From assembly GCA_026328835.1 (NCBI GenBank), contig GCA_026328835.1_4850.1: DNA of 46,457 bases; one strand, 5' to 3'. Every line of letters begins with the position of its first letter. Position 1 is the stretch's first letter. A program made the position numbers and the translations under genes. The DNA is from a phage. A model generated the notes under the pieces. It worked only from the letters and a program-made list of their open reading frames with translations. It made no database searches and was not told where the DNA came from. Shown one piece after another: positions 2,431 to 46,137 of this stretch.

Positions 2431-2732
2431 TATTTAATCTCTCCATTCAGTTCATTAACAATTAACGTTGCATAGCCAGCAATATCTTTCCAGCTGTCAT
2501 CATAAGTCGGGTCGCCATTCAGAATACGCCCAATCTTGTGCTGAATCATGTCGAGCGCCTCGCGCTGGCTTGGTGTCAGATTGTTCCACCCATCCACTTC
2601 GCGCATGACGGTTTTCAGTTCCTGCATGATTTCAGCGCCATCTTTGAATTTGCCGTATCGGCTACCGCGCGCGGTGATGAGTTGCTCTGTTGCGTCAGTA
2701 TGGCGCCTATCGCCCGTGATTTGTGAACTCAT
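2430..2732 (-). CDS. hypothetical protein
   Basis: 100-aa ORF; 1-nt overlap with downstream gene. Confidence 0.45.
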   Translation of the reverse strand: MSSQITGDRRHTDATEQLITARGSRYGKFKDGAEIMQELKTVMREVDGWNNLTPSQREALDMIQHKIGRILNGDPTYDDSWKDIAGYATLIVNELNGEIK

Positions 2733-3219
2733 TGTGATGTATTCTCCTGAATTCTTTTATTTTTGCTTCCGCTTCTCTTATGTCAGAAAAGTAACCAACT
2801 GTGAATCTTTTGCCATTTACTCCAACTCTTGCATGCCACTTGTTGTGCGATGAACTCCAGTTAACCCCCTTGATACCGCTAGTGTTGTTTTTGTTCATTG
2901 CTTTGTTGTGGCTATTCTCAAATTTGCTGGCCTCCCTTAAATTGCACGCCCTGTTGTCATTGCGAATTCCATTGATGTGATCAATCATTTCACTTGCTGA
3001 TGAGCCATGAATACATATCCATGCCAGTCTGTGAGCAAGAAAAGCCCTACCGCAAAGAATTATTTGCACATATCCATCTGGCTTTAAGTAGCCTGCAACG
3101 CTCCCTTTTTCTGCAATCCTATTCCTTGTCTTTAGCCATTTAAATTCCCCAGTTAGTGGATTGTAGTCAAGGTAACTCAATATAAACTCCCTACTCGGCT
3201 CCTCCCTCCTATGTCTCAT
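2707..3219 (-). CDS. HNH homing endonuclease with AP2-like DNA-binding domain
   Basis: HRLAW...DHINGIRNDNR..NLR HNH motif plus NTSGIKGVNW...W.A AP2-like segment. Confidence 0.8.
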   Translation of the reverse strand: MRHRREEPSREFILSYLDYNPLTGEFKWLKTRNRIAEKGSVAGYLKPDGYVQIILCGRAFLAHRLAWICIHGSSASEMIDHINGIRNDNRACNLREASKFENSHNKAMNKNNTSGIKGVNWSSSHNKWHARVGVNGKRFTVGYFSDIREAEAKIKEFRRIHHNEFTNHGR

Positions 3220-3422
3220 TTCTCAACCTCTTTCATCGTCACCAGATTATTTTCATCAACATTGAAGTTGTCCCTGATAAGGTTATACATCTCATCCTTC
3301 GGCATATCAGCCAGCGCCACATAGCAACGGGCAAAGTAGCGAACATCACGGAGTGTCAGCGGCTGACGCTTCTCCACAATGCTGGTGATAATGTCCATCG
3401 GCTCGCGTCGTGGTCTTGGCAT
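3216..3422 (-). CDS. hypothetical protein
   Basis: ORF track start 3458 is a TTG codon; ATG at 3422 preceded by AAGGAG preferred (MPRPRREPMDII...). Confidence 0.45.
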   Translation of the reverse strand: MPRPRREPMDIITSIVEKRQPLTLRDVRYFARCYVALADMPKDEMYNLIRDNFNVDENNLVTMKEVEK

Positions 3423-3522
3423 ATTTACTACTCCTTCTCGAAAATTATTGTTGACCAATCCACATCACTTAGTCAATACTTATTGACGTAGATTGTACCA
3501 CAACGGAAAAGGTGATGTGGAA

Positions 3523-3720
3523 ATGCGATACAAAGAAATAGCAGCGAGATATCAGAAGGAAGTTCGCGAGGTTATGGAAATCCTTAACGTTCGCGAGGAT
3601 ACCATTAAGTTTGTGGAAACTGCCATGTGCTCACTGGCGCTTGAAGCGGAGGTTGCAGGTCGTGAAAAGGCTGACGAACTTATATCTGCGGTGGTTTATA
3701 GTTCAACCAGTAACGGTTGA
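3523..3720 (+). CDS. hypothetical protein
   Basis: ATG 3523 with AAAGGTGA RBS (track start 3493 is TTG); MRYKEIAARYQKEV... Confidence 0.45.
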   Translation: MRYKEIAARYQKEVREVMEILNVREDTIKFVETAMCSLALEAEVAGREKADELISAVVYSSTSNG

Positions 3721-3780
3721 AGATGAAGGTTATCTGTGCGTTGAGCACGTTGTTATCAAATTCTACGGGAGAAATTATAA

Positions 3781-3975
3781 ATGGCGCATGACGAGCTGTA
3801 CGAAAAGTCGTTAATCCAGCGACTGAATGAAGTTGAACGCACTCGCGAATGGCTGGAGTGCGAGCTGCGAGAGGTGCGAAACCGACTGCAACGCAAGCGC
3901 AGTCAGCAGAAAGACGTTATCGACTGGTCCGGTGATGCACCTAAATTTAACAACATTGGAGAATGGTTGAAATGA
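3781..3975 (+). CDS. hypothetical protein (coiled-coil)
   Basis: 64-aa ORF. Confidence 0.45.
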   Translation: MAHDELYEKSLIQRLNEVERTREWLECELREVRNRLQRKRSQQKDVIDWSGDAPKFNNIGEWLK

Positions 3976-4220
3976 GCGCACCACATATGCCGATGATGAA
4001 TGATAACGGGTTGTTGTGCTGTCCATTCTGTGGCGGGAATGAAGTTTACTTGAATATTGATTTAGTGCTTGTATCTGTCGAATGCGGAGATTGCTGTGCT
4101 AGTTCAGGTGAATGGGGTTCACCGGAAACCGCTGTCAGGCACTGGAACACCCGAAACGGACACCTATACACCGCCGACGACTTCAATCAGGCAGCAGAGG
4201 AACGCGATAATGGACTATAA
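3972..4220 (+). CDS. Lar-like restriction alleviation protein (Cys-rich zinc ribbon)
   Basis: CPFCGG....(20)...CGDCC four-Cys arrangement in a small protein; ATGA overlap with upstream gene. Confidence 0.5.
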   Translation: MSAPHMPMMNDNGLLCCPFCGGNEVYLNIDLVLVSVECGDCCASSGEWGSPETAVRHWNTRNGHLYTADDFNQAAEERDNGL

Positions 4221-4698
4221 ATCACAAATCATGCGCGTAATAATCAATCATCCGGGAGCGACGCGTGCATACATTGAGAGGCATTGCAGAGGAAAGCACT
4301 CAAGCACCACAACGCATCGCCTGCATGAGATGCTTGCTCTTGGCTTCATTCGCCGCGAGAAGTCAGTGATTCGTGGAGGTAAGTGGCAGTACAAGTATTT
4401 CATCTCTGATGATGCGGCAGGTATTGATGATGCAATTAAGTGTCATTTGCTTGATAACGAAGGAGCAGAAGTGAAAGAAATCAGCGCAGCCACTGGCATT
4501 GATTACCGAATCGTAAAAAGCCGTATCCGCATTATGTTTCATAACGGCGATGTAACGCGAAGCTATGACCACCACAAGAAGCTGTGGCGCTACTCATGGC
4601 ATGAGCAGGAAGTAAACGTGAGCAACCTGTTTAATTCACTTCTTCGCAGCGCAAGAGGTCAGCATGGTAAAAGCGAAACGCAAGAAGCAAGAGTATGA
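4210..4698 (+). CDS. hypothetical protein, possible tandem winged-helix DNA-binding protein
   Basis: internal start MDYKSQIM at 4210 overlaps upstream stop; two helix-rich repeats. Confidence 0.45.
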   Translation: MDYKSQIMRVIINHPGATRAYIERHCRGKHSSTTTHRLHEMLALGFIRREKSVIRGGKWQYKYFISDDAAGIDDAIKCHLLDNEGAEVKEISAATGIDYRIVKSRIRIMFHNGDVTRSYDHHKKLWRYSWHEQEVNVSNLFNSLLRSARGQHGKSETQEARV

Positions 4699-4840
4699 GC
4701 CACTGCCGCCATGCGAAATGTCAGGAATTCCGCAGCAGGAGGTTGTGATTCTCACCGAAGCTGAGTGGCGCAAGGTGGCAAGAGTGCAAATCATGTTCCG
4801 CAAACTTGCTGAGGACGTACTAAATGAGATGGGCTATTAA
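4664..4840 (+). CDS. hypothetical small protein
   Basis: hand-translated 58-aa ORF MVKAKRKKQEYEPLPP...LNEMGY, frame checked codon by codon; not in >=60-aa ORF track. Confidence 0.3.
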   Translation: MVKAKRKKQEYEPLPPCEMSGIPQQEVVILTEAEWRKVARVQIMFRKLAEDVLNEMGY

Positions 4841-5102
4841 GCATAAATCTGGCAGAACTCTGTTTGCAACATCGGATGAGTTTATTGCCAATAACCGTAG
4901 AAAGATGGGCTGGATAGTGGAAGAGTTAACTGCATACGAAAGAATGAAAATCAATAATAAAGAAAATCAGAGAATTGTCTCTGTGAATGTTGGAGTCCTT
5001 AAAGCGGCATTAAGTGAGATTCGTGCTCACGTCGCAGTAAATGGCGAAGGCATCATGACCAGATCCATAATCAATGCATTAGAGGTGAATATAAAAAAAT
5101 GA
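4824..5102 (+). CDS. hypothetical protein
   Basis: 92-aa ORF. Confidence 0.45.
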   Translation: MRWAIKHKSGRTLFATSDEFIANNRRKMGWIVEELTAYERMKINNKENQRIVSVNVGVLKAALSEIRAHVAVNGEGIMTRSIINALEVNIKK

Positions 5103-5425
5103 TTATCCAACTAAACGACATCATGAAAGCAGACATTATTCAACTTGAAGATTATGACGTGCAACTGGCGTTTGAAATAGAAACCGTTGAGCGTCAACTG
5201 CAATATGCAGATAAGAAGAATGATCGTGTCTGGCACGAGAAAGCACTTAAGGCGCGCGACCACATGAAGCGCACGCGAGCACTCATCAAAACTCGTCTTG
5301 ATAAGCTGTATTACGGAGAGGAAAGATATTTGCATGGCGCGATACTGGCGCAAATCCGCAAGGAAATGCCAATTGGCAAGTTCATGTCATACGTTCACCG
5401 CGCAAAACAGGAGGCTGGGTTATGA
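5099..5425 (+). CDS. hypothetical protein
   Basis: 108-aa ORF; ATGA-type overlap. Confidence 0.5.
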   Translation: MIIQLNDIMKADIIQLEDYDVQLAFEIETVERQLQYADKKNDRVWHEKALKARDHMKRTRALIKTRLDKLYYGEERYLHGAILAQIRKEMPIGKFMSYVHRAKQEAGL

Positions 5426-5610
5426 GCGAACCAAAATTTCCAGAATTGCCAGTGGAGGTTCAGGTTGCATTGATTAATGCAGCAAGTGCAATGGCGACAA
5501 AGAAGATTGAGGCAATAGGCAGTGATTACAACAGGAATATAGACTGGTTTCAGAGGGAGTATCAAAAAATCTGCGACGCACTCTACAAAGAAAACAGGGG
5601 TAGACCATGA
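5422..5610 (+). CDS. hypothetical protein
   Basis: 62-aa ORF. Confidence 0.45.
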   Translation: MSEPKFPELPVEVQVALINAASAMATKKIEAIGSDYNRNIDWFQREYQKICDALYKENRGRP

Positions 5611-5753
5611 TTCCATTACTTTGGATATTATCAGTCTACGCATTCGCGCGGGTATTTGAGGCTGATACTCTGTACCAGATGATTTGCTATGGCGCTCTGT
5701 TCTGTCTCTCTGGTGCTGCGCTTGCATTTATGGATGATGTGATTTCAGACTAA
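5607..5753 (+). CDS. hypothetical small membrane protein
   Basis: hand-translated 48 aa MIPLLWILSVYAFARV...; ATGA overlap with upstream stop. Confidence 0.3.
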   Translation: MIPLLWILSVYAFARVFEADTLYQMICYGALFCLSGAALAFMDDVISD

Positions 5754-8817: not shown

Positions 8818-9015
8818 ATGGCTAAGTACGAAGTCATCGCACGCGGAATCTTTGTCAAAGAAAAAGGCAAGATTCGTGAATTGCAGCTTGGCGAGGTTAT
8901 CACGGAACCTGCTGAGCATCTGCTACCAAAGCTGCGCGTTATGCCGGAACTGGAAAAGTCTTTCGAAGTCGCAACCCCGCAAGAAAAGACGACAAAGAGA
9001 AAGAAAGCAGAGTAA
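8818..9015 (+). CDS. hypothetical protein
   Basis: 65-aa ORF with RBS GAGGTGA. Confidence 0.45.
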   Translation: MAKYEVIARGIFVKEKGKIRELQLGEVITEPAEHLLPKLRVMPELEKSFEVATPQEKTTKRKKAE

Positions 9016-9019
9016 ACTG

Positions 9020-9044
9020 AACCCGCATAATGCGGGTTTTTTAT
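9020..9044 (+). terminator. rho-independent terminator
   Basis: acccgca-taa-tgcgggt stem then TTTTTT. Confidence 0.7.
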
Positions 9045-9055
9045 TGGGGGCTTCT

Positions 9056-9904
9056 ATGGCAGTAAGATACGACATATTCACCACACGCGAAGATGGCGAG
9101 GTGATGCTTGATGAGTTGATGTCCGCTGACTGGACTGCGCTACAGGTTAACGTGATGCCACTTGATTCATCTGGCGCATACACACCACTTGTCAGTGGAA
9201 CTGTGTCCGTGAAGGTGTCGCCATTTGAATCTGGCAACTACTGGATTGACGTCAACAATAATAATTATTACGGCGTAGCGCTGCGCCTGAAGATAATCAA
9301 AACGGAATTACCAGCAGCAGTAAGTTCGCTGCGCGTTTCGGTGTGGCGCGCTGGCGTTTCTCCACAATCGGTAGTAAACCTTCAGCCTGACGTGGCGATA
9401 AGCGATATCACCACGCAGTCATATATTGAACGCGCCAATAAGCAAGGCAAGCTGTTCACCGCGTCGCGTAGAGTAACTGATGTTTCTGGCGGCTCAAACA
9501 TTGACAGCATTTTTATCACCGGAACAAAGCAGGTGATATTCAACCAGCGCATTATTGGTTACACAGGGAAAGGTGTTATTGCGTCAATCTATCGCGGCGC
9601 AGTTGCCACAGGAGGCACAGCAGCAGAGATTAATAATCCAAACGATATAACACCACAGGCAGCTACGGCGCAGCTGCTGACTGGCGCTACTGTGACAAAC
9701 ATCGGACAGTTGACAGTTGCAGCAACGTATAGCGAAGGGAATGCATCGAATCAGGGGCAGGGTAACTCGCAGGCTAGATTAGGTGAGCAGATTATCATGG
9801 CACCAAACACGACGTACTTACTTCGCATAACATCACTGGATACTGCGGTGCAGAATATCAATGCTTACGTTTCGTGGTTTGAGGATGATACTTATCTGGC
9901 GTGA
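9056..9904 (+). CDS. putative virion structural protein
   Basis: internal ATG 9056 (MAVRYDIF...) after terminator preferred over track start 8852. Confidence 0.45.
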   Translation: MAVRYDIFTTREDGEVMLDELMSADWTALQVNVMPLDSSGAYTPLVSGTVSVKVSPFESGNYWIDVNNNNYYGVALRLKIIKTELPAAVSSLRVSVWRAGVSPQSVVNLQPDVAISDITTQSYIERANKQGKLFTASRRVTDVSGGSNIDSIFITGTKQVIFNQRIIGYTGKGVIASIYRGAVATGGTAAEINNPNDITPQAATAQLLTGATVTNIGQLTVAATYSEGNASNQGQGNSQARLGEQIIMAPNTTYLLRITSLDTAVQNINAYVSWFEDDTYLA

Positions 9905-10478: not shown

Positions 10479-10675
10479 TACTTCACCTTTATCATGTGCT
10501 GTTTTGCAACCTTCAGGCATTCTTCAAAGATGCCACCCTTCTTTGCGCTCTGATTGCGCTTGTAATACTGAATCGCCGCATCAATTGCCATCTGGTCGAT
10601 ATCTGGCAGCTTGGCGCGAAGTTGTTTTTCGATGAATTGCTCAGCGTTCATTGTTCTCGCCTGCCATAAATCCAA
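10478..10675 (-). CDS. hypothetical protein
   Basis: 65-aa ORF; alternative internal start at 10651. Confidence 0.4.
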   Translation of the reverse strand: MDLWQARTMNAEQFIEKQLRAKLPDIDQMAIDAAIQYYKRNQSAKKGGIFEECLKVAKQHMIKVK

Positions 10676-10868
10676 TAAATTGCTTTGTGCACTTCAGGCA
10701 AAGCCACTTGCATTTCTGAATGTTAATCCCTCCGCAGTCCTGGCCAATACTCCCTCTGTATGCGACGGTAAGTTCTCCGCGCTCACCATCAATATACTCA
10801 TCAGGATTTTTAGTTTCATATCCGCATCTATCACACTTATGGATTGTTATGGTTATTTTCGCCATCAC
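10641..10868 (-). CDS. zinc-ribbon protein
   Basis: CDRCG...CLKC Cys pairs in 75 aa. Confidence 0.5.
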   Translation of the reverse strand: MMAKITITIHKCDRCGYETKNPDEYIDGERGELTVAYRGSIGQDCGGINIQKCKWLCLKCTKQFIGFMAGENNER

Positions 10869-11674
10869 ATCTTCTCCAGAATTGCCATGACCTCGTGAAT
10901 ATCAGCAACAGGAATCTGGATAAACTCCTCATCCTCAGCCACCACATGACCAGCAGGAAGAATTACATGATCTGCTGGCTTTAATAACTCAATCAGGCGG
11001 TCTACTGGCTTAATCTTTTTCGACTTCAGCACCTTTGCCGTGACCTTGTCCTTGCCTTGTGCTTTGGCCTCTTCGACTGCCTCGTCGATAACTTTAACCG
11101 CATCATCGCCATGTTCACGCGTTACTGCTACGGCATTTGCATAGCTGATTTGTCCTGCACTGATGCGCGCTTTTACTTCTGCTGGCACATCACCCAGCGA
11201 CAGGTGCATTTGCACGTCAGATACTGAGCGGCCTACCTTCTTGGCGATTTCTTCATTTGTCCAGCCAAATCCTTTCAATCGCGTGTAAGCCTTTGCACGC
11301 TCAAACGGGTCAAGCTGCTTGCCCTGACTGGATGACACCATGAAGGCGATTTTGTCCGCCTCGTCGCCAGTGAAATCCTTGCACTCAATGCGAACGATTG
11401 GTGCGCCGCGTTCAATGGCTCGTAGTGCACCAAGATAGCGATGCTGACCATCAAGAATGCGGATTCCTTTGTCGTCAGGGATAACTGTTAATGCTGGCAA
11501 TGGCTGACCTGATTCCCAGCACTGAGCGAAATATTCAACGTGTTGCTCATCTGCTTCACGGATGTTATATCCCGGCTCCAGATAGATTCGCTCCACTGGC
11601 ACGAGATAGGTTTTGTTAACAGCAATACCGTTGCGCGTTTCTTTGTCTGAATAGATTTTGCTTAGTGTTTTCAT
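10865..11674 (-). CDS. ParB-like (ParB/Srx N-terminal domain plus HTH) protein
   Basis: DGQHRYLGA GxxR-type motif followed by HTH-like EEIAKKVGRSVSDVQMHLSL. Confidence 0.65.
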   Translation of the reverse strand: MKTLSKIYSDKETRNGIAVNKTYLVPVERIYLEPGYNIREADEQHVEYFAQCWESGQPLPALTVIPDDKGIRILDGQHRYLGALRAIERGAPIVRIECKDFTGDEADKIAFMVSSSQGKQLDPFERAKAYTRLKGFGWTNEEIAKKVGRSVSDVQMHLSLGDVPAEVKARISAGQISYANAVAVTREHGDDAVKVIDEAVEEAKAQGKDKVTAKVLKSKKIKPVDRLIELLKPADHVILPAGHVVAEDEEFIQIPVADIHEVMAILEKM

Positions 11675-12015
11675 TGTTTCTTTCCTAATGCTTTCTTGAT
11701 AGATTCTTCAGCTAACAGCAATTCTTCTGGGTATTGCTCATTCCAGTTTTGTTTGTATGCCTTGCCAAGCATTTTTTGCAGAGCTTCAAGCAACTCAGGT
11801 GCTGCGGCTATTAACTTTGCATTTGCACGCGTTTCATCAGCCTCTCTGGCATGAACATTTTCATAAACAGGTGTTAATACATTTGCCACCTTATATCGAT
11901 GACCAATAATTGCGCCTCTGATTCTGATGTATGGCTTATCTACTTCTTCTGGTAAAACCTGCCACGGACCTTTTGTACCTTTGAATTCATCTTTCATATC
12001 ACTCACCTCTAACAT
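11671..12015 (-). CDS. Ead/Ea22-like protein
   Basis: KGPW ... ANAKLIAAAPELLEAL pattern. Confidence 0.5.
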   Translation of the reverse strand: MLEVSDMKDEFKGTKGPWQVLPEEVDKPYIRIRGAIIGHRYKVANVLTPVYENVHAREADETRANAKLIAAAPELLEALQKMLGKAYKQNWNEQYPEELLLAEESIKKALGKKQ

Positions 12016-12037
12016 TTATTGTTGTTTCTACGTCATT

Positions 12038-12066
12038 ACTATAAACACCTCACCAATCTACGTCAA
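12038..12066 (-). promoter_or_regulatory. sigma70-like promoter for the minus-strand island
   Basis: minus strand TTGACG (12066-12061), 17-nt spacer, TATAGT (12043-12038). Confidence 0.5.
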
Positions 12067-12074
12067 CAGGAATA

Positions 12075-12083
12075 TGCTAAAAT
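12075..12083 (+). promoter_or_regulatory. extended -10 promoter element (TGcTAAAAT)
   Basis: TG-N-TAAAAT about 30 nt upstream of the ORF at 12114. Confidence 0.35.
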
Positions 12084-12113
12084 CATGCTAATCAAACAAC
12101 AGGAGATTTAAAC

Positions 12114-12233
12114 ATGGGTTCCACCAATTCGCCTTCTCGTTCACGCGCAACTGGCAATACCAAAACTGGCGGCAAAACTGGCGCAGTGAAGCCAAACGGC
12201 TCCACCCGTTCACCGTCGCGCGGTAAGAAATAA
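12114..12233 (+). CDS. small highly basic Ser/Thr/Gly-rich protein
   Basis: hand-translated 39 aa MGSTNSPSRSRATGNTKTGGKTGAVKPNGSTRSPSRGKK; strong RBS AGGAGA; stop overlaps next ATG. Confidence 0.4.
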   Translation: MGSTNSPSRSRATGNTKTGGKTGAVKPNGSTRSPSRGKK

Positions 12234-12673
12234 TGTTCGGCGCAGATATTGCCATCATGATCATGTATGTGCTTGGCTTTGCCTGCACGGGCATGATTGC
12301 GTTTCTGGTGTTCATTCCGGCAATGGTGATGTCTGTGTATCTTGGATGGGTGCTTGTTGATTCATTTCCCGCCGAATATCTGTATTACCTTGCGCAGTCT
12401 ATGATCTGGTTGTTTCCGGCTATTGCGCTGCGCAAAAGTACAAAGATGGCGCTCTGCGTGCTTACGATGAGCCTTTACGAATGGCTGGTTGTGATAGAGT
12501 CATTCGTATGGGAATTTATCACGCCTGTAGAAACGCCGCTTCATGCGCAGTACGCATTTATTATTATCGGCATCCATCTGTTCATCCTTTCCATCACTTT
12601 TAAATGGGGCGGCGAAATTGGACATTATTCTTGGCGTGGTCGCCATTGTTTTTTCGCTGATTCAAATCTATAA
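12233..12673 (+). CDS. integral membrane protein
   Basis: 146 aa with about four hydrophobic segments. Confidence 0.45.
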   Translation: MFGADIAIMIMYVLGFACTGMIAFLVFIPAMVMSVYLGWVLVDSFPAEYLYYLAQSMIWLFPAIALRKSTKMALCVLTMSLYEWLVVIESFVWEFITPVETPLHAQYAFIIIGIHLFILSITFKWGGEIGHYSWRGRHCFFADSNL

Positions 12674-20061: not shown

Positions 20062-20085
20062 ATAAGCCCCTCACGGGGCTTTGTT
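20062..20085. terminator. rho-independent terminator
   Basis: aagcccc-tcac-ggggctt stem-loop. Confidence 0.6.
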
Positions 20086-20949
20086 CATTATCTCGTCCAT
20101 TAATTCAGGTGAATATTTAAGCCACTCCGTTGCGCCATCAAACCCTGTCAGTCCTGCACTTTCGTATTTCTTATGATAGTACCTTTCAATAGCAAGAGCA
20201 TCACAACCTATTGTCTTTATTTTTGATATGACGTGAAAATCAAATGGTGTGTTTTTCTTTAACTGACAAACTCTACGCCTAAGATTGTTAGTGATCCCAA
20301 CTTTAATTTCGTTTCCTGAGAACAAGAAGTAAACAAAGGCCTTTTCTTTCAGCTTGAAACCTCCCTTGGAGCAATGAGGGCAACCTTGCCCTTGGAGATG
20401 CTTATCTGGCGTCTTTGTAAACCACCCATGCTCTGGGCATTTTATTCTCATTTTTGTTGTCACATTAATGTATGACAAGCAATCATAATGGTACTTATTC
20501 CCATGAATTATAATGGCATCTTTCTTGAACTTATTGAACCCCTTAGTTACAGATGCTGTAATTTTCTCCCTTGCGCAAACAGGGCAACCACACCCATTAA
20601 GGTGGCTGTTGGCCTCCTGAGAAAACTCAAAGTTATGTACTTTGCATATTATTTTTACTTTCTTGTGACCACCTTTGTATTCAACTTTAGAATAATCATA
20701 AGAGTCACCATGCTTTGCAATCGCATCAGCCACAAATTCACGCGTTGTTTTCTTCTTATTTCCAGAGCAAGAAGGGCATCCAGCTCCATTCAAATGAGAG
20801 TTTGGAGTCTGCTCAAATAGCCCATGCTTACGGCATGTTATCTTTACCTTTATCGAACTTTTTATATAAGAAACAGCATCATAAAGATATTTATCACCAT
20901 GAATATCTCTGGCTTTTATAATAAATTCTTCAGCGGTTGACTTGCTCAT
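20071..20949 (-). CDS. putative nuclease: three tandem Cys/His zinc-ribbon repeats plus T5orf172 (GIY-YIG-like) C-terminal domain
   Basis: three ~65-aa repeats HG.KY.Y...C..HG.F...P..HL.G.GCP.C; C-terminal VYFLF..NEIKVGIT.NL.RR...EWL. Confidence 0.55.
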   Translation of the reverse strand: MSKSTAEEFIIKARDIHGDKYLYDAVSYIKSSIKVKITCRKHGLFEQTPNSHLNGAGCPSCSGNKKKTTREFVADAIAKHGDSYDYSKVEYKGGHKKVKIICKVHNFEFSQEANSHLNGCGCPVCAREKITASVTKGFNKFKKDAIIIHGNKYHYDCLSYINVTTKMRIKCPEHGWFTKTPDKHLQGQGCPHCSKGGFKLKEKAFVYFLFSGNEIKVGITNNLRRRVCQLKKNTPFDFHVISKIKTIGCDALAIERYYHKKYESAGLTGFDGATEWLKYSPELMDEIMNKAP

Positions 20950-30711: not shown

Positions 30712-32617
30712 AATCTTTTCTGTGTATTATGTCACGGCCTTTATCGTTAATACGATGTGTGATGCGTTTTGGCGCTTTAATCAACCCCGCATACATCATG
30801 AACTGCTTGGCGTTCTGGCATTTCAGGATTTTCCCAGCTATTGATTTATCATCAAGGTGAGGGAAGATGGCCTTTGCCTTGAACATGTTTTTCATGTGGG
30901 TTGCTCCGCCGTAAGGGTAGAAAACCTCGTTAGCCCAGCCTTCTTTGCCATCACAACGATTAATCCAGTAGCGATATAAAATTCCCTCTCCATCCTTCGT
31001 CAACTGGACTTTGAAGTCAATAACATCAGCCCATTCGTTGTCGGTATACGCACGCTCATTCAGTGCCGCATTTGGGTCTCGCAAAACATGATCGCAATGT
31101 CGGCAATAGCGCGCCGTAGGGTCGTTTTTAGTTCCGCAACCATCATCAAAAATACGGATGCCATGCTTATCGAAGCCGCAACGGATGTAGCTGAAAAATT
31201 CTTCGCAGCGACCATCTGGAGATAGTGCATCTTTGCCAATACAGCGGCGAGCATATGGGCTGTTCATTGTTCCACATTTTGGACACGGAACCTGTTCGCC
31301 ACTGCGTTTTGAACGTTGCGCTTCAGCCTCTTCCAGAATAGGGTCTTCATACAGCTGACCAAGCTCAAACATCGTGCCTGAGAAATCCAGAACCAGATGG
31401 TCTTCTTTATGATACCCGGCATCAATTTGCTCTTTCTTCAGCAGGCGCATTCCGCGACCAAGCAACTGAACGAGAAGGGTGAGTGACATTATTTTTCGTA
31501 ATATGACGCTTACATCCCATAATGGGATATTAACGCCAGTTGTAAGCGCGGCGATCTGGAATGTGTATTTTATTTTGCCAGTGTACGCATCCCTCAGGGC
31601 TTTGCGTCTTGCTTTTTGCCCCATATCTTCAGTAACAATCGCGTAGCTGCCTTCAGGAAGGTATTTAGCAGCCTCCAAGCAATGCTTCTTGCCTGCGCAG
31701 GTAATTAATACCCCATTTCTGTCTTTTGTAAGCTCCATCACTTTGAGCATGATTTTCTGTGTAAGAGTTCCTTGTTCAAGTATTTCCTCCTGCATCTGCT
31801 TGAGCTGCTCTGCGGTGAAGTCCTGCGTCCCGTCAACATCTGAGCCATGGAAGTTATGCAGGTCGTATTGCAAGTCATCAACATCATGAAGACCAAAGAT
31901 TGTTGGAACAACAAATCCACGATCTACCATGTACTTTGTGTCAATGTTTATTATTTCATTTTTCCAGTACGCGCCTTTCATTGATTCAGTACCACGGAAT
32001 GGACTTCCGGTGAATCCAATTGTTATCATCTCATGACCATATTTTTCCTTGCATCGCCTGTTAAGCTCAGTAAGTATTACGCCATATTGTGTTGTTGGAT
32101 TCTCACTAATAATGTCCTGCCATGGCACTTGGTGCCCTTCATCACAAAGGCAAAATCTAGGGGTAAAGTCACTCAACCCACCTTTCTTAACGTCACCGTT
32201 TGATTCATCTTTTTTATCAAAAAGTGCGTTAACTATTGTTCCTTCAGTGCCGCATATAATAGGGTATGCTGTACTTTTCCTACCAAGAGATGCGCTATAA
32301 AGAGAGTTTTTTACACCACACTCCCACATCATTTCAGCATTCTGCTCAGCTATCTCGCCCTGCCTTGAGATTACAAGACCCTCCCACCCCATATCCTGAA
32401 ATCTACTGCAAAGCATTGAAATCATCACGGTCTTTCCTGATGAAACAGACGCTGTAACATAGCTTGGCTCTGGTTTCTTTCCAAAATTACGAATAACCTC
32501 AGCGCACTTTGCGTAAACAAGCCATTGGTAATCATATGGCTCTATGGAACCTAATTTTATTGATTTCTTTAATTTATCTATATCAATTTCTGAAATCATC
32601 TTGTCTATTTTATGCAT
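30683..32617 (-). CDS. superfamily 2 DNA helicase with C-terminal zinc ribbons
   Basis: Walker A SVSSGKT; DEGH box (LCDEGHQV); QLLGRGMR arginine finger; CPKCG and CRHC pairs. Confidence 0.85.
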   Translation of the reverse strand: MHKIDKMISEIDIDKLKKSIKLGSIEPYDYQWLVYAKCAEVIRNFGKKPEPSYVTASVSSGKTVMISMLCSRFQDMGWEGLVISRQGEIAEQNAEMMWECGVKNSLYSASLGRKSTAYPIICGTEGTIVNALFDKKDESNGDVKKGGLSDFTPRFCLCDEGHQVPWQDIISENPTTQYGVILTELNRRCKEKYGHEMITIGFTGSPFRGTESMKGAYWKNEIINIDTKYMVDRGFVVPTIFGLHDVDDLQYDLHNFHGSDVDGTQDFTAEQLKQMQEEILEQGTLTQKIMLKVMELTKDRNGVLITCAGKKHCLEAAKYLPEGSYAIVTEDMGQKARRKALRDAYTGKIKYTFQIAALTTGVNIPLWDVSVILRKIMSLTLLVQLLGRGMRLLKKEQIDAGYHKEDHLVLDFSGTMFELGQLYEDPILEEAEAQRSKRSGEQVPCPKCGTMNSPYARRCIGKDALSPDGRCEEFFSYIRCGFDKHGIRIFDDGCGTKNDPTARYCRHCDHVLRDPNAALNERAYTDNEWADVIDFKVQLTKDGEGILYRYWINRCDGKEGWANEVFYPYGGATHMKNMFKAKAIFPHLDDKSIAGKILKCQNAKQFMMYAGLIKAPKRITHRINDKGRDIIHRKDFAGEQSEAA

Positions 32618-33222
32618 TATTTTACCCTACCAAATTCACCATGAAGACTTGATGATGCTTTTGCATACGCTTTATGTGCATCCTCAGGGGTATTAAAATA
32701 ACCAATAACTTTCTTTTTACCTCTAACCCAAATCTGAGCAACCCACCGTTTCTCCCTTTTGAACCAACTAACACCTTTGTATCCGCTAGTGTTATTTGAT
32801 GATAAGCCTTTATTCCATTTGTTTTGACTGCAATCAGCCAACCTGAGATTTTCTATCCTGTTATCGTTCTTAATTGTATTGATGTGATCAATGTCCATAG
32901 CTCCAGGGTCTTGCTGTTTGCATATGGCCCATACAATTCTATGTGCTTTATAATAAACACCATCAATCATCACAAGCCTGTAATTCATTTTGTCAACCTT
33001 ATTGTCAGCAGGTTTCCCCGGATACCGTGAATTCCATGTTTTGTGATATGGCGTTAATTCATCTCTCCTTTTCCAATACAGGCGTCCATTGACAACCTCT
33101 AACCTTGATGTCACGTAATCAACATCAATTTTTAGCACCTTTCTTTTTTTCTCTAAAACTTTTGAGTCGGCACCCTGAGCAACAGAACTCAGCCCTTGCT
33201 GTTCCATAGAATTCCCCCCCAC
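32617..33222 (-). CDS. HNH homing endonuclease with AP2-like domain
   Basis: HRIVW...DHINTIKNDNRIENLR plus NTSGYKGVSW...W.A. Confidence 0.8.
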   Translation of the reverse strand: MGGNSMEQQGLSSVAQGADSKVLEKKRKVLKIDVDYVTSRLEVVNGRLYWKRRDELTPYHKTWNSRYPGKPADNKVDKMNYRLVMIDGVYYKAHRIVWAICKQQDPGAMDIDHINTIKNDNRIENLRLADCSQNKWNKGLSSNNTSGYKGVSWFKREKRWVAQIWVRGKKKVIGYFNTPEDAHKAYAKASSSLHGEFGRVK

Positions 33223-33360
33223 AGTTTTTGCACTTTTTCAGAGTGATAGCCATTTCTTATCCTCGATATTAAACTCAGTTGCGTTTCATGTCAATAACGC
33301 TTGTGCGTTTCATGCGAGTAAATTACAATGATTCTACATCAACGTCAACAGGAAGATTTT

Positions 33361-34314
33361 ATGAGATACGACTGGAAAGACATTGAGCCAAAAATGCTCG
33401 GCAACTGGCAGGCTGCCATCATGTCTATCGTCAATGTGGATAGCAGAGTTTTCAATGGCAAGCACCAGCCTTGCCCGTCATGCTCAGGCAAAGACAGGTA
33501 TCGCTTTGATGATAACTTCGAAACAAAAGGCGATGGTGGCGCAATCTGCAATCAGTGCGGTTCCGGCAGCGGCATGAACTGGCTGATGAAACTCTCCGGA
33601 ATGAGCTTTCCTGAAGCACTGGAGGCGCTTGGAGGATTCCTGAACATGAACCCACGTGAAAAGCTGGAGGCAATCAGGAAAGAGTTACCGAAGATAAATT
33701 ACAATGATGACTTCATCACCGAGCAGGAAGTCGCAGCAATCATGGCTAAAACGACGCGTGTCGCGATGAATGAGTGGACTTTGATAAATGGCATTGGTTG
33801 CGACGTTAGCGTCGTCAGAGGCAAATCTGGAGAGCTTGTTGCGGTTGAGTTGATGCGCGCAGACACAATGAAGCCGTGCAATGTGGCGTTCATTGGCATG
33901 GATGGTGATGCATTCAGAACATTTTATAAAGCAGGGTACAACAAGGACTCAGCCATCAACGGTAAACTCACGCGCGGCGCGATAAGCACAATCGGAGAAG
34001 ACAACGGAAAGTTCATTTATCTTGTTTCTGATTATGCCGACGCGTGGAAGTGCCATTACTTCACTGGCGCTCATGTCTGGTGCTGCTGGTCGCCGGAAAA
34101 CATATGGGAAGTGGTGCGATCTGTTAGTGATGAGACGAAAGCACGGTTACGCTGCATAGTTAATTATAAATTCGACGAACTATGCGCGGCAGAAAATGCA
34201 GGACTTCCGGTGATGCTGCCTGATGATGCTGACACTATCAGGATGGCGAAACGAATCAGAAGAAAGATTTATGACGCTGGCGAGCTTATAGAGAAAATGT
34301 CAGTCAGCAGATAA
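33361..34314 (+). CDS. DNA primase (zinc-ribbon N-terminus)
   Basis: CPSCSGKDRYRFDD...CNQCGSGSGMNWL zinc-binding motif; ATG 33361 with AGGAAG RBS preferred over track start 33328. Confidence 0.6.
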   Translation: MRYDWKDIEPKMLGNWQAAIMSIVNVDSRVFNGKHQPCPSCSGKDRYRFDDNFETKGDGGAICNQCGSGSGMNWLMKLSGMSFPEALEALGGFLNMNPREKLEAIRKELPKINYNDDFITEQEVAAIMAKTTRVAMNEWTLINGIGCDVSVVRGKSGELVAVELMRADTMKPCNVAFIGMDGDAFRTFYKAGYNKDSAINGKLTRGAISTIGEDNGKFIYLVSDYADAWKCHYFTGAHVWCCWSPENIWEVVRSVSDETKARLRCIVNYKFDELCAAENAGLPVMLPDDADTIRMAKRIRRKIYDAGELIEKMSVSR

Positions 34315-39924: not shown

Positions 39925-40368
39925 ATGGCTAATCCAAACCCTGTCATGAAATTTTCCTCTGAGTACCAGCCTGCTGGCAGAGGATTAAGCTACAGAAACA
40001 GGCTTATTGAAGCATTAAAGCGATGTGGGCTTGGCGAAGAGGAGTTTCTTGACGCATTCATCAGGACGTCAATCAGGATGACCGAGGAAAACCCGACTCA
40101 GGGTGTGCAGATGCTGAAGGAGATATTCCTGCGCATCAGTCCCGTGCAGAAAAGTATGGCGCCTCCGGTTAATTTTAAATACCGCAAAGATGCCACGCCG
40201 GTAGAGCAGATAGAGGATGTCATTCAATCTGTTTCCAGCGGTGAACTCCCAATTGACGTGGCGTCTCAGGTTGTGTCTATGATTAAGGTTGGTCTTGACG
40301 TGAAAGAGTTAACCGAACTCGCAGCGCGCCTTGAGCGACTGGAGAAATTACTGGAGCAGCAACAATAA
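39925..40368 (+). CDS. putative terminase small subunit
   Basis: 147 aa directly upstream of terminase large subunit (interrupted by HNH gene). Confidence 0.5.
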   Translation: MANPNPVMKFSSEYQPAGRGLSYRNRLIEALKRCGLGEEEFLDAFIRTSIRMTEENPTQGVQMLKEIFLRISPVQKSMAPPVNFKYRKDATPVEQIEDVIQSVSSGELPIDVASQVVSMIKVGLDVKELTELAARLERLEKLLEQQQ

Positions 40369-40374
40369 CTCATT

Positions 40375-40380
40375 TATAAT
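40375..40380 (+). promoter_or_regulatory. -10 hexamer TATAAT preceding HNH leader
   Basis: TATAAT 7 nt upstream of structured element. Confidence 0.35.
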
Positions 40381-40387
40381 AATCAAT

Positions 40388-40433
40388 GCGGCAAAGGGTA
40401 GCTCCCTGCCCGGATTGGTCTCCGGGCTGCCGC
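40388..40433 (+). ncRNA. conserved structured 5' leader element (copy A)
   Basis: outer stem gcggca/tgccgc enclosing hairpins aggg-tagct-ccct and gcccgga-ttggtc-tccgggc; near-identical copy at 45501-45546. Confidence 0.5.
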
Positions 40434-40471
40434 ATCCAACCAATAGACCGCCTGTAACCGAGGATTCAATC

Positions 40472-40990
40472 ATGTCATCATTAAAAGAGTTGCCACTCAC
40501 TCAAGAAAGACTTAAACATCTCCTGCATTACAATCCAGACACCGGTGTTTTCACGTGGTTAAGTAAGCCAAGCAGAAGAATAAATTCTGGAAGCATTGCT
40601 GGCAGGATAAAACCTAAGAAGGGGTATGTGGAAATAGGAATAAGTGGAAGGATCTATCTTGCTCATAGGCTGGCATGGCTTTACATCTATGGAACTTGGC
40701 CTAAAGAACAAGTTGACCACATTAATGGCATTCGTAACGATAACAGGATTAAGAATTTAAGGCTGGCCACAACATCACAGAATCAGTGGAACAAGAAGAT
40801 GCAAAAAAACAACACATCTGGAATTAAGGGGGTTAGCTGGGATAATCAACGGGGAAAATGGATAGCCCAATGCTGGTTATTTGGCAAGTATCACAAAATA
40901 GGTAGGTTTTCATCAATTGATGATGCTGAACGTGCAATAAGACAGTTCAGGGAGAAACATCAGGGGGAATTTTGCAATCATGGCGCGTAA
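40472..40990 (+). CDS. HNH homing endonuclease with AP2-like domain
   Basis: start MSSLKEL at 40472; HRLAW...DHINGIRNDNRIKNLR; NTSGIKGVSW. Confidence 0.8.
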   Translation: MSSLKELPLTQERLKHLLHYNPDTGVFTWLSKPSRRINSGSIAGRIKPKKGYVEIGISGRIYLAHRLAWLYIYGTWPKEQVDHINGIRNDNRIKNLRLATTSQNQWNKKMQKNNTSGIKGVSWDNQRGKWIAQCWLFGKYHKIGRFSSIDDAERAIRQFREKHQGEFCNHGA

Positions 40991-45494: not shown

Positions 45495-45500
45495 TTACTT

Positions 45501-45546
45501 GCAGCAAAGGGTAGCTCCCTGCCCGGATTGGTCTCCGGGCTGCTGC
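45501..45546 (+). ncRNA. conserved structured 5' leader element (copy B)
   Basis: identical inner hairpins to copy A; outer stem gcagca/tgctgc carries compensatory change. Confidence 0.5.
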
Positions 45547-45585
45547 ATCCAATCAATAGACCATCCTTATGACCGAGGACTCAAA

Positions 45586-46137
45586 ATGAAATCAATAAAC
45601 CGCAACAAAATGCCTGCAATGGCTCGCCTTTCACATCTATTCATTATTTCCAATGATGGAACAATCAAGCGCAGAATTGCTGCTGGCAATAGAGCGGCAG
45701 GCAGCAGCGCAGAAAGGAGTTTGTGTGGAAGTGACTATACATGCATAACTGTTGATGGCGTAAGATACCTAACCCATAGGGTTATTTGGTTCTTCTTTAC
45801 TGGTGAAGAGCCTGATTATCTTGATCACATAAATAGAAACAAAAAGGACAACAGACTATGCAATTTGAGGCCAGTATCCGCCACAGGAAACAGAAGTAAC
45901 ACTGATTTGATGAACAACAACACAACTGGATATATTGGTGTTTATTGGTATTACTACAAAGGAACTCCTAGATGGAGAGCTGCTTGCAACGATAAACATC
46001 TTGGGTATTACAGTTCGCTTGTCTCGGCAGTAAAGGCATATAATCGTTATGTGACAAGTATTTATGGTGATGAGGCATTAGCAAAGGTTGAGCATAACAA
46101 GAGGATGATCAAAGAATCTTTTGGTATTGAACTGTAG
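45586..46137 (+). CDS. HNH homing endonuclease with AP2-like domain
   Basis: start MKSINRNK at 45586; HRVIW...DHINRNKKDNRLCNLR; NTTGYIGVYW. Confidence 0.75.
   Translation: MKSINRNKMPAMARLSHLFIISNDGTIKRRIAAGNRAAGSSAERSLCGSDYTCITVDGVRYLTHRVIWFFFTGEEPDYLDHINRNKKDNRLCNLRPVSATGNRSNTDLMNNNTTGYIGVYWYYYKGTPRWRAACNDKHLGYYSSLVSAVKAYNRYVTSIYGDEALAKVEHNKRMIKESFGIEL

Follow-up and report, generated by a model that had tools for sequence, protein, structure and literature searches.

What does a small zinc-ribbon protein labelled 'restriction alleviation' do for the phage that carries it? The question is raised by a gene on the plus strand (3972-4220) of the window analysed here, a stretch of 46,457 nucleotides that represents the ~46-kb genome of a Skatevirus-like siphophage. 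Its nearest record, Escherichia phage ClaudiaMuster (Bas77), shares ~90% nucleotide identity over ~79% of the first 25 kb. The initial annotation had read the gene product as a Lar-like Cys-rich protein with a CPFCGG...CGDCC pattern and as a candidate anti-restriction factor. The family call reproduces pipeline annotation, which itself rests on a single protein studied in 1995, and the label is spreading to hundreds of phage genomes; close relatives of the window phage show normal sensitivity to two type I systems. As near-identical orthologues already bear the label, the Lar-like call is not new. As far as literature searches show, the new points are two clade-specific extensions of the protein and the exchanged core cassette that lies between them.

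Gene model and family assignment

The gene, recognised from its sequence and from profile and BLASTP matches, comprises 82 codons plus TAA and translates into an 82-aa product, MSAPHMPMMNDNGLLCCPFCGGNEVYLNIDLVLVSVECGDCCASSGEWGSPETAVRHWNTRNGHLYTADDFNQAAEERDNGL. Its ATG at 3972 shares the tetranucleotide ATGA (3972-3975) with the stop of the upstream gene and is preceded by a Shine-Dalgarno-like GGAG, read from the sequence 10 nt before it on the same strand (3958-3961); its own stop, TAA, occupies 4218-4220. An in-frame ATG at 3963, listed by the ORF tool, was rejected as the start: it lacks a Shine-Dalgarno sequence, and annotated orthologues start elsewhere. The gene is genuine: it occurs in 202 phage records (tblastn, coverage >=80%), and its conserved ends are under purifying selection (pN/pS 0.21 over codons 1-21 and 0.16 over codons 58-82). 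It looks expressed, and its product is an acidic Cys4 zinc ribbon that belongs to the Lar family.

The gene is a conserved component of Skatevirus/Roufvirus-type siphophages and a published comparison counts it in the core gene set of the proposed Skatevirinae (PMC11769527, Table 2). Its orthologue in Bas77, Bas77_0030, is 96% identical and annotated as 'Lar-like restriction alleviation protein', a label also found on the orthologues of the other phages in the Bas77-81 series, Vi II-E1 (VIP0012), Skate, swi2, and many others. The annotated orthologues, from Skatevirus, Macdonaldcampvirus, and Roufvirus-type phages, share the locus, the neighbours, and the conserved ends with the window gene. 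The GenBank record of Vi II-E1 additionally places a 276-bp 'repeat_region' over the Lar-like gene (L002, 3535-3810), in which we saw only short, chance-level repeats.

Profile searches agree with this label at the family level. The protein matches Pfam PF14354 (Lar_restr_allev) with 33.7 bits against a gathering score of 28.6 (E 4.4e-8, profile positions 3-58 of 58) and PHROG 599, 'Lar-like restriction alleviation protein', with E 1e-13. In BLASTP, it aligns with RalR/Lar of the Escherichia coli K-12 Rac prophage at 33% identity over 45 aa (E 6e-8), a match that spans both zinc knuckles and the WNxR motif. The initial annotation thus had both the coordinates and the motif exactly right, and the Pfam search that it proposed as a check came out positive. 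We consider it very probable that the window protein belongs to the Lar family. It falls short of two narrower cutoffs, however, scoring 35.2 bits against the 39.6 of NCBIfam TIGR03655 (anti_R_Lar) and 19.1 against the 113 of the RalR equivalog NF007260, and since both are missed, it is, by its profile scores, a divergent family member and not an orthologue of RalR. PF14354 is the sole Pfam family reported at E values up to 1, with no match to the lambda Ral family. The records of LPST10 and LPSTLL annotate a primase-helicase zinc-binding domain instead; we rejected this assignment, as PF08273 (Zn_Ribbon_Prim) does not match the protein, whereas the true primase of the window (33328-34314) does match it (E 3.9e-12).

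Aligning 58 homologues resolves the protein into conserved and variable parts. Codons 1-16 (3972-4019, plus strand) encode a clade-specific N-terminal extension, MSAPHMPMMNDxGLLx, supported by the alignment and by pN/pS, in which P4, P7, M8, M9, N10, and L15 are nearly invariant; this extension lies outside the Pfam match, which begins at residue 14. The first zinc knuckle, C17-P-F-C20 (4020-4031, plus strand), has C17, P18, and C20 conserved in at least 90% of sequences, and the second, C38-G-D-C41 (4083-4094, plus strand), has C38 and C41 invariant in all 58. Two glycines follow the first knuckle and C42 follows the second, giving the CPFCGG and CGDCC strings. The protein therefore shows the Cys4 arrangement of PF14354, a CPFCG knuckle and, 15-25 residues later, a CxxC knuckle, and is predicted from sequence to bind zinc. 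The helix-then-WNxR arrangement of this family is likewise present, with a helix at 51-58 and W58-N-T-R61 (4143-4154, plus strand), the Lar-family signature that closes the Pfam domain; W58 and R61 never vary, N59 and T60 are kept in at least 90% of sequences, and the motif aligns with WNKR of RalR. Beyond it, the alignment reveals a conserved, acidic, and clade-specific C-terminal extension, NGHLYTADDFNQAAEERDxGL (4155-4217, plus strand), which is missing in RalR. Overall, the window protein has a net charge of -9 and a pI of 4.27, close to the family median of ~4.5.

An AlphaFold2 model built with the 58-sequence alignment (mean pLDDT 84.5, >93 for residues 11-60) predicts a zinc ribbon plus helix, with a beta hairpin (25-30/33-38) between the knuckles, the helix at 51-58, short strands past WNTR, and a low-confidence C-terminal helix at 68-79. 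Foldseek against the PDB returned only generic zinc ribbons, none below E 0.08, and the top non-significant hits come from transcription and translation factors, TFIIB/Brf and RPB9 among them. In a comparison with predicted viral structures, proteins bearing a Lar-family annotation ranked first. Searching solved structures by sequence gave a single match, to a snake venom metalloprotease (E 0.09), which we dismissed as chance.

A hypervariable core cassette

The two ends of the alignment read MSAPHMPMMNDEGLLxCPFCG and WNTRNGHLYTADDFNQAAEERDxGL, and the middle is scrambled. Nucleotide diversity and typing define this middle as a hypervariable, laterally exchanged core cassette of approximately codons 17-57 (4021-4140, plus strand), which covers the inter-knuckle hairpin, the second knuckle, the loop, and most of the helix. 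Across a three-gene stretch, nucleotide diversity is 0.39-0.58 within the cassette versus 0.09-0.25 in the flanks, with sharp edges. Synonymous differences follow the same pattern, with a saturated pS of 0.74 in the core versus 0.44-0.56 in the flanks, and because synonymous sites are affected, the core represents deep allelic lineages and not mere relaxation. The saturation also makes between-type dN/dS uninterpretable as a measure of positive selection. In 32 IMG/VR loci with the same backbone, the flanking genes are 88-100% identical to those of the window, and the Lar protein, with three exceptions, reaches only 52-63%. Similarly, most annotated orthologues carry another core cassette and are 45-63% identical to the window protein overall, whereas those of Bas77 and Bas79 match it at 96% along its full length. 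Few phages have the window-type cassette, which turned up in 2 of the 202 isolate records and in 3 of the 58 IMG/VR loci.

Clustering the cores of 59 genes (from as many genomes) at 70% identity yields 23 discrete types. Several types are common to the Skatevirus-like backbone and a distant backbone whose neighbouring genes are only 35-52% identical, identical cassettes occur where the neighbours share 35-49% identity, and cassette type is independent of host genus, types being shared by phages of Salmonella and E. coli and by Roufvirus-like (Klebsiella-phage-type) backbones. The clearest exchange is seen between loci L013 and L038, where the cassette proteins do not differ at all (100% identity) and the genes are 80-100% identical in DNA, while the surroundings are essentially unalignable. 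Within types, the core is under purifying selection as strong as that at the ends (pN/pS 0.07-0.35), which rules out relaxed constraint as the source of the variability. Among genes of the window's type, the core has diverged less at synonymous sites than the ends have (0.10 versus 0.28-0.36), and this difference suggests that the cassette spread recently across backbones. HMMER searches of 1.84 billion representatives with the core alone retrieved 60 diverse small proteins at 35-58% identity, with no close outside donor of the window's cassette among them. Retroelement-type diversity generation was also considered and set aside, the window holding no paralogue, template repeat, or second Lar-like gene.

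The protein thus consists of a conserved N-terminal peptide, a swappable core of ~40 residues, and a conserved WNTR-plus-acidic tail, and its core types are anciently diverged, each selectively maintained, and swapped between phages by recombination. Judging from the sequence comparisons, they are probably discrete and old alleles, each functional in its own right, which homologous recombination has shuffled at or close to the conserved ends of the gene.

Could such variability arise without any function of the core? A tolerant scaffold might accumulate it, since family recognition needs only the knuckles and WNxR, or it might be the scar of gene conversion driven by homing endonucleases; the window has four HNH genes, one of them ~750 nt from the Lar-like gene, and in Bas78 and 64795_sal3 an HNH gene directly adjoins it. 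Yet the within-type purifying selection excludes relaxed constraint, the island has diverged more than the flanks at synonymous sites, and homing would tend to homogenise the locus instead of keeping 23 deep types. We regard this explanation as very improbable. Homing-endonuclease activity may nevertheless contribute to the exchange at this locus, because an HNH gene adjoins the Lar-like gene in Bas78 and similar genomes.

In Bas78 (L063, 1465-2206), the HNH gene lies directly 3' of the Lar-like gene and replaces the winged-helix gene found there in the window, and the Lar C-terminal tail is replaced as well; the hits in 64795_sal3 and KpnS_VR6602 suggest that the locus is arranged likewise there. 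The four free-standing HNH_3 genes of the window lie at 2707-3219 (minus strand), 32617-33222 (minus), 40331-40990 (plus), and 45499-46137 (plus), and an AP2 domain accompanies HNH_3 in the two that we examined (2707 and 32617). Inside the tail module lies a further gene, with a DUF4379/T5orf172 (GIY-YIG-like) domain (20071-20949, minus). This load of homing-endonuclease-like genes is unusually heavy for a 46-kb phage, and their positions are unlike those in Bas77.

Genomic setting and restriction of relatives

A rightward run of small genes, most of which overlap (~3517-5753), has the Lar-like gene in third place; the run is flanked by a divergent intergenic region and the head genes. The intergenic region (3447-3521) has weak sigma-70-like hexamers on both strands, identified as consensus matches only (9 observed versus 5.6 expected), and is a possible start of a rightward small-gene operon. 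Placing the gene in an 'early region', as proposed initially, is plausible from this arrangement. Immediately upstream lies a gene for a 64-aa, coiled-coil-like protein (phrog_15697; 3781-3975, plus strand), whose stop overlaps the Lar start and whose product is 89-100% identical in relatives with a different Lar core. In approximately half of the relatives, an extra gene for a 73-aa basic protein lies between this gene and the Lar-like gene (Bas77_0029; L003, 11479-11700); the window lacks it (junction 3972/3975), and its presence is uncorrelated with cassette type.

Downstream, a gene for a 162-aa, MarR-like winged-helix protein (phrog_1687; 4210-4698, plus strand) starts within the last 11 nt of the Lar-like gene. 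The protein looks like two winged-helix units, with a MarR_2 match below threshold (residues 6-52) and a TrmB-like one (residues 80-121), as well as a weak match to the PHROG 'Ren-like exclusion protein' (E 1.9e-5, residues 63-135). The proximity of the two genes raises an alternative, in which the Lar-like protein would serve gene expression of the phage itself as a partner or regulator, working with the translationally coupled winged-helix protein. The 11-nt overlap fits this idea, as does the adjacency of the two genes, which is kept in both the Skatevirus-like and the Klebsiella phage branches, and the best solved-structure matches, although not significant, are the transcription-factor zinc ribbons of TFIIB/Brf and RPB9. 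But the two proteins do not co-vary, the winged-helix protein staying 88-94% identical while the Lar core changes type; Bas78 keeps the Lar-like gene even though its winged-helix gene is replaced by an HNH gene; and a strongly acidic protein is unlikely to bind DNA. A regulatory role therefore appears improbable.

Published plating data bear more directly on restriction. The BASEL collection (S1 Data in PMC11990801) includes phages that all carry the gene and that were challenged with plasmid-borne EcoKI and EcoCFT_I, for which each phage has one site and two or three sites, respectively. With EcoKI, EOP values were 0.04-0.1 for Bas77, 0.02-0.03 for Bas78, 0.03-0.1 for Bas79, and 0.04-0.2 for Bas80; with EcoCFT_I, they were 6e-4 to 1e-3, 2e-4 to 6e-4, 1e-4 to 6e-4, and 2e-4 to 1.3e-3 in the same order. 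The BASEL authors describe these phages as 'markedly sensitive to RM systems' (PMC11990801). The window's cassette is present, at 96% identity, in Bas77 and Bas79, and three other types are found in Bas78, Bas80, and Bas81; the plating of phages with different cassette types is indistinguishable, and restriction by both systems is clear. The gene hence gives no Ocr-like immunity, and the cassette type is irrelevant for EcoKI and EcoCFT_I. Because Bas77-80 are similarly restricted despite their different cassettes, the data point to weak or absent alleviation of these plasmid-borne systems by the Lar-like protein and are compatible with a partial, Ral-like effect. Of the original description as a candidate anti-restriction factor, the Lar-family part stands; the anti-restriction part is a family label, with some evidence against a strong effect. 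In the same dataset, these near-isogenic phages are not equally sensitive to the Old system, with an EOP of ~1-2 for Bas80 versus 0.001-0.5 for Bas77-79 (PMC11990801).

With relatives showing normal type I sensitivity, the label is best read as the name of a fold and not of a function. One alternative is that the protein counters host defence or assists host takeover through a target other than type I enzymes, such as another polymorphic defence or a protein of a competing phage or prophage, the label being a family name only. The allelic-cassette pattern fits any polymorphic target, relatives with different cassettes are equally restricted by two type I systems, and the gene lies in an accessory region whose neighbouring genes are gained and lost. 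The difference in Old sensitivity (EOP ~1 in Bas80 against 0.001-0.5 in Bas77-79, with different cassettes) points the same way, as a correlation across four phages only. On the other hand, the sole experimental precedent in the family concerns EcoKI. We consider a non-type-I target to be on the unlikely side.

Part of the rationale for a type I target comes from the window itself, in which avoidance of EcoKI and EcoBI sites is not seen in site counts (4 and 18 sites, respectively) and which lacks two proteins of Bas77. These are a C5 DNA methyltransferase and a PHROG-annotated 'anti-restriction protein', encoded in Bas77 between the RusA-like and lipoprotein genes (L003, 17503-19738); tblastn found no counterpart of either in the window. 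A methyltransferase family was likewise not found when the larger non-structural ORFs and part of the small ones were scanned with Pfam, in agreement with the initial annotation, which had recognised no methyltransferase gene in the genome. The window has instead, at 10520-12320 (minus strand), a 113-aa phrog_1273 gene (11671-12015) and a 74-aa orphan (12088-12315), and this variable locus may be a more typical anti-defence hot spot than the region of the Lar-like gene. A further difference from Bas77 lies immediately behind the major capsid gene, where the window has a 350-aa ORF that starts with TTG (8852-9904, plus strand), matches no Pfam family, and matches phrog_5335 in its C-terminal half; Bas77 has only a 65-aa ORF there.

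Candidate function and comparison with known systems

Taken together, conserved ends, a sharply bounded core island, exchange between backbones, and within-type purifying selection suggest, at the level of sequence patterns, that the core is a specificity module aimed at a polymorphic partner. The variability and lateral exchange indicate selection of the arms-race type and leave the target unnamed; a cassette structure of this kind is the signature of an arms-race specificity determinant. That the protein acts in counter-defence or host interaction on a polymorphic target seems to us about evenly balanced. The best explanation as a whole, which we hold tentatively and at somewhat less than even confidence, is a Lar-family host-interaction or counter-defence protein with a swappable core, for which type I enzymes are the leading candidate target. 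Against it count the similar restriction of Bas77-80 by EcoKI and EcoCFT_I, the missed NCBIfam Lar cutoff, and a charge opposite to that of RalR.

According to this preferred explanation, the small-gene operon would supply a host-interaction (counter-defence) accessory protein whose conserved ends form a constant module and whose swappable zinc-ribbon face sets which polymorphic partner is bound. With a net charge of -9 and a pI of 4.27, compared with +5 and 9.1 in RalR, the protein would be expected to bind protein rather than cut DNA. Type I restriction-modification enzymes of the host offer, in their methyltransferase core, the leading specific candidate for a target. Acted on in the way that lambda Ral and Rac Lar reportedly do, the methyltransferase would methylate unmodified DNA, and phage DNA would thereby be modified instead of cut. 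By analogy with these two proteins, such a type I alleviation mechanism is possible, if doubtful.

A more elaborate version holds that a constant docking or effector module, made up of the N- and C-terminal peptides, carries an exchangeable zinc-ribbon cassette of ~40 residues, each type recognising a different host-defence variant, such as one of several type I methyltransferase or specificity subunits. By recombining ~120-250 nt, a phage would then redirect its counter-defence, and the cassette types in circulation among siphophages of Salmonella, E. coli, and Klebsiella number at least 23. We consider this version unlikely in its full form. Bas77-81, which were isolated on E. coli K-12 and carry four natural versions of the gene, make the function of Lar-family proteins tractable for testing.

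Beyond Rac Lar/RalR, our literature searches found no experimental work on Lar-family proteins, and that protein has been given two roles, restriction alleviator and DNase toxin (PMC4041452). The alleviator description goes back to King and Murray 1995, as cited in PMC4041452, where Rac Lar is credited with alleviation of EcoKI (type IA) restriction and enhancement of modification like that by lambda Ral. The toxin description suggests a further alternative, a RalR-like non-specific DNase that would act as a toxin or degrade host DNA; RalR, the founding member of the family, reportedly cleaved DNA in vitro and was toxic (PMC4041452). The window protein agrees poorly with such a role. Its score against the RalR equivalog is 19.1 versus 113 bits, and its pI is 4.3 versus 9.1. 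The RalR positions important for toxicity (14, 37, 39, 49, 51, and 52) align with G22, S45, E47, H57, N59, and T60, so that only N51 is kept, and K52, whose replacement in K52Q abolishes DNase activity, aligns with the near-invariant T60. In addition, no RalA-like RNA or other Rfam match beyond chance was found among modelled RNAs in 3000-5500. A DNase function is therefore extremely improbable and, given the opposite charge, the mechanism of RalR need not carry over.

Three known systems frame these proposals. Lambda Ral is the functional model, a small phage protein that alleviates EcoKI by turning its maintenance methyltransferase (M.EcoKI) into a de novo enzyme (PMC3874165), and Lar has been described as functionally analogous to it; Ral nonetheless belongs to an unrelated fold family, with no sequence relationship to the window protein. 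The DNA mimics Ocr and ArdA, which act on type I systems, are also small and acidic (pI ~4, bioRxiv 10.1101/2023.04.06.535777, compared with 4.27 here), but they share neither sequence nor fold with the zinc ribbon of the window, and Ocr-bearing phages escape EcoKI, whereas relatives of the window phage do not. Closest is RalR/Lar itself (Rac, b1348, 64 aa), the founding member of PF14354 and TIGR03655, which has in common with the window protein the Cys4 ribbon, the CPFCG and CxxC motifs, and the helix followed by WNxR; both are encoded by small phage-borne accessory genes. Compared with RalR, the window protein has 16 additional conserved residues at its N-terminus and 21 at its C-terminus and is acidic (pI 4.3) where RalR is basic (net charge +5, pI 9.1), and its gene resides in a lytic siphophage beside a winged-helix gene, whereas that of RalR lies beside recET.
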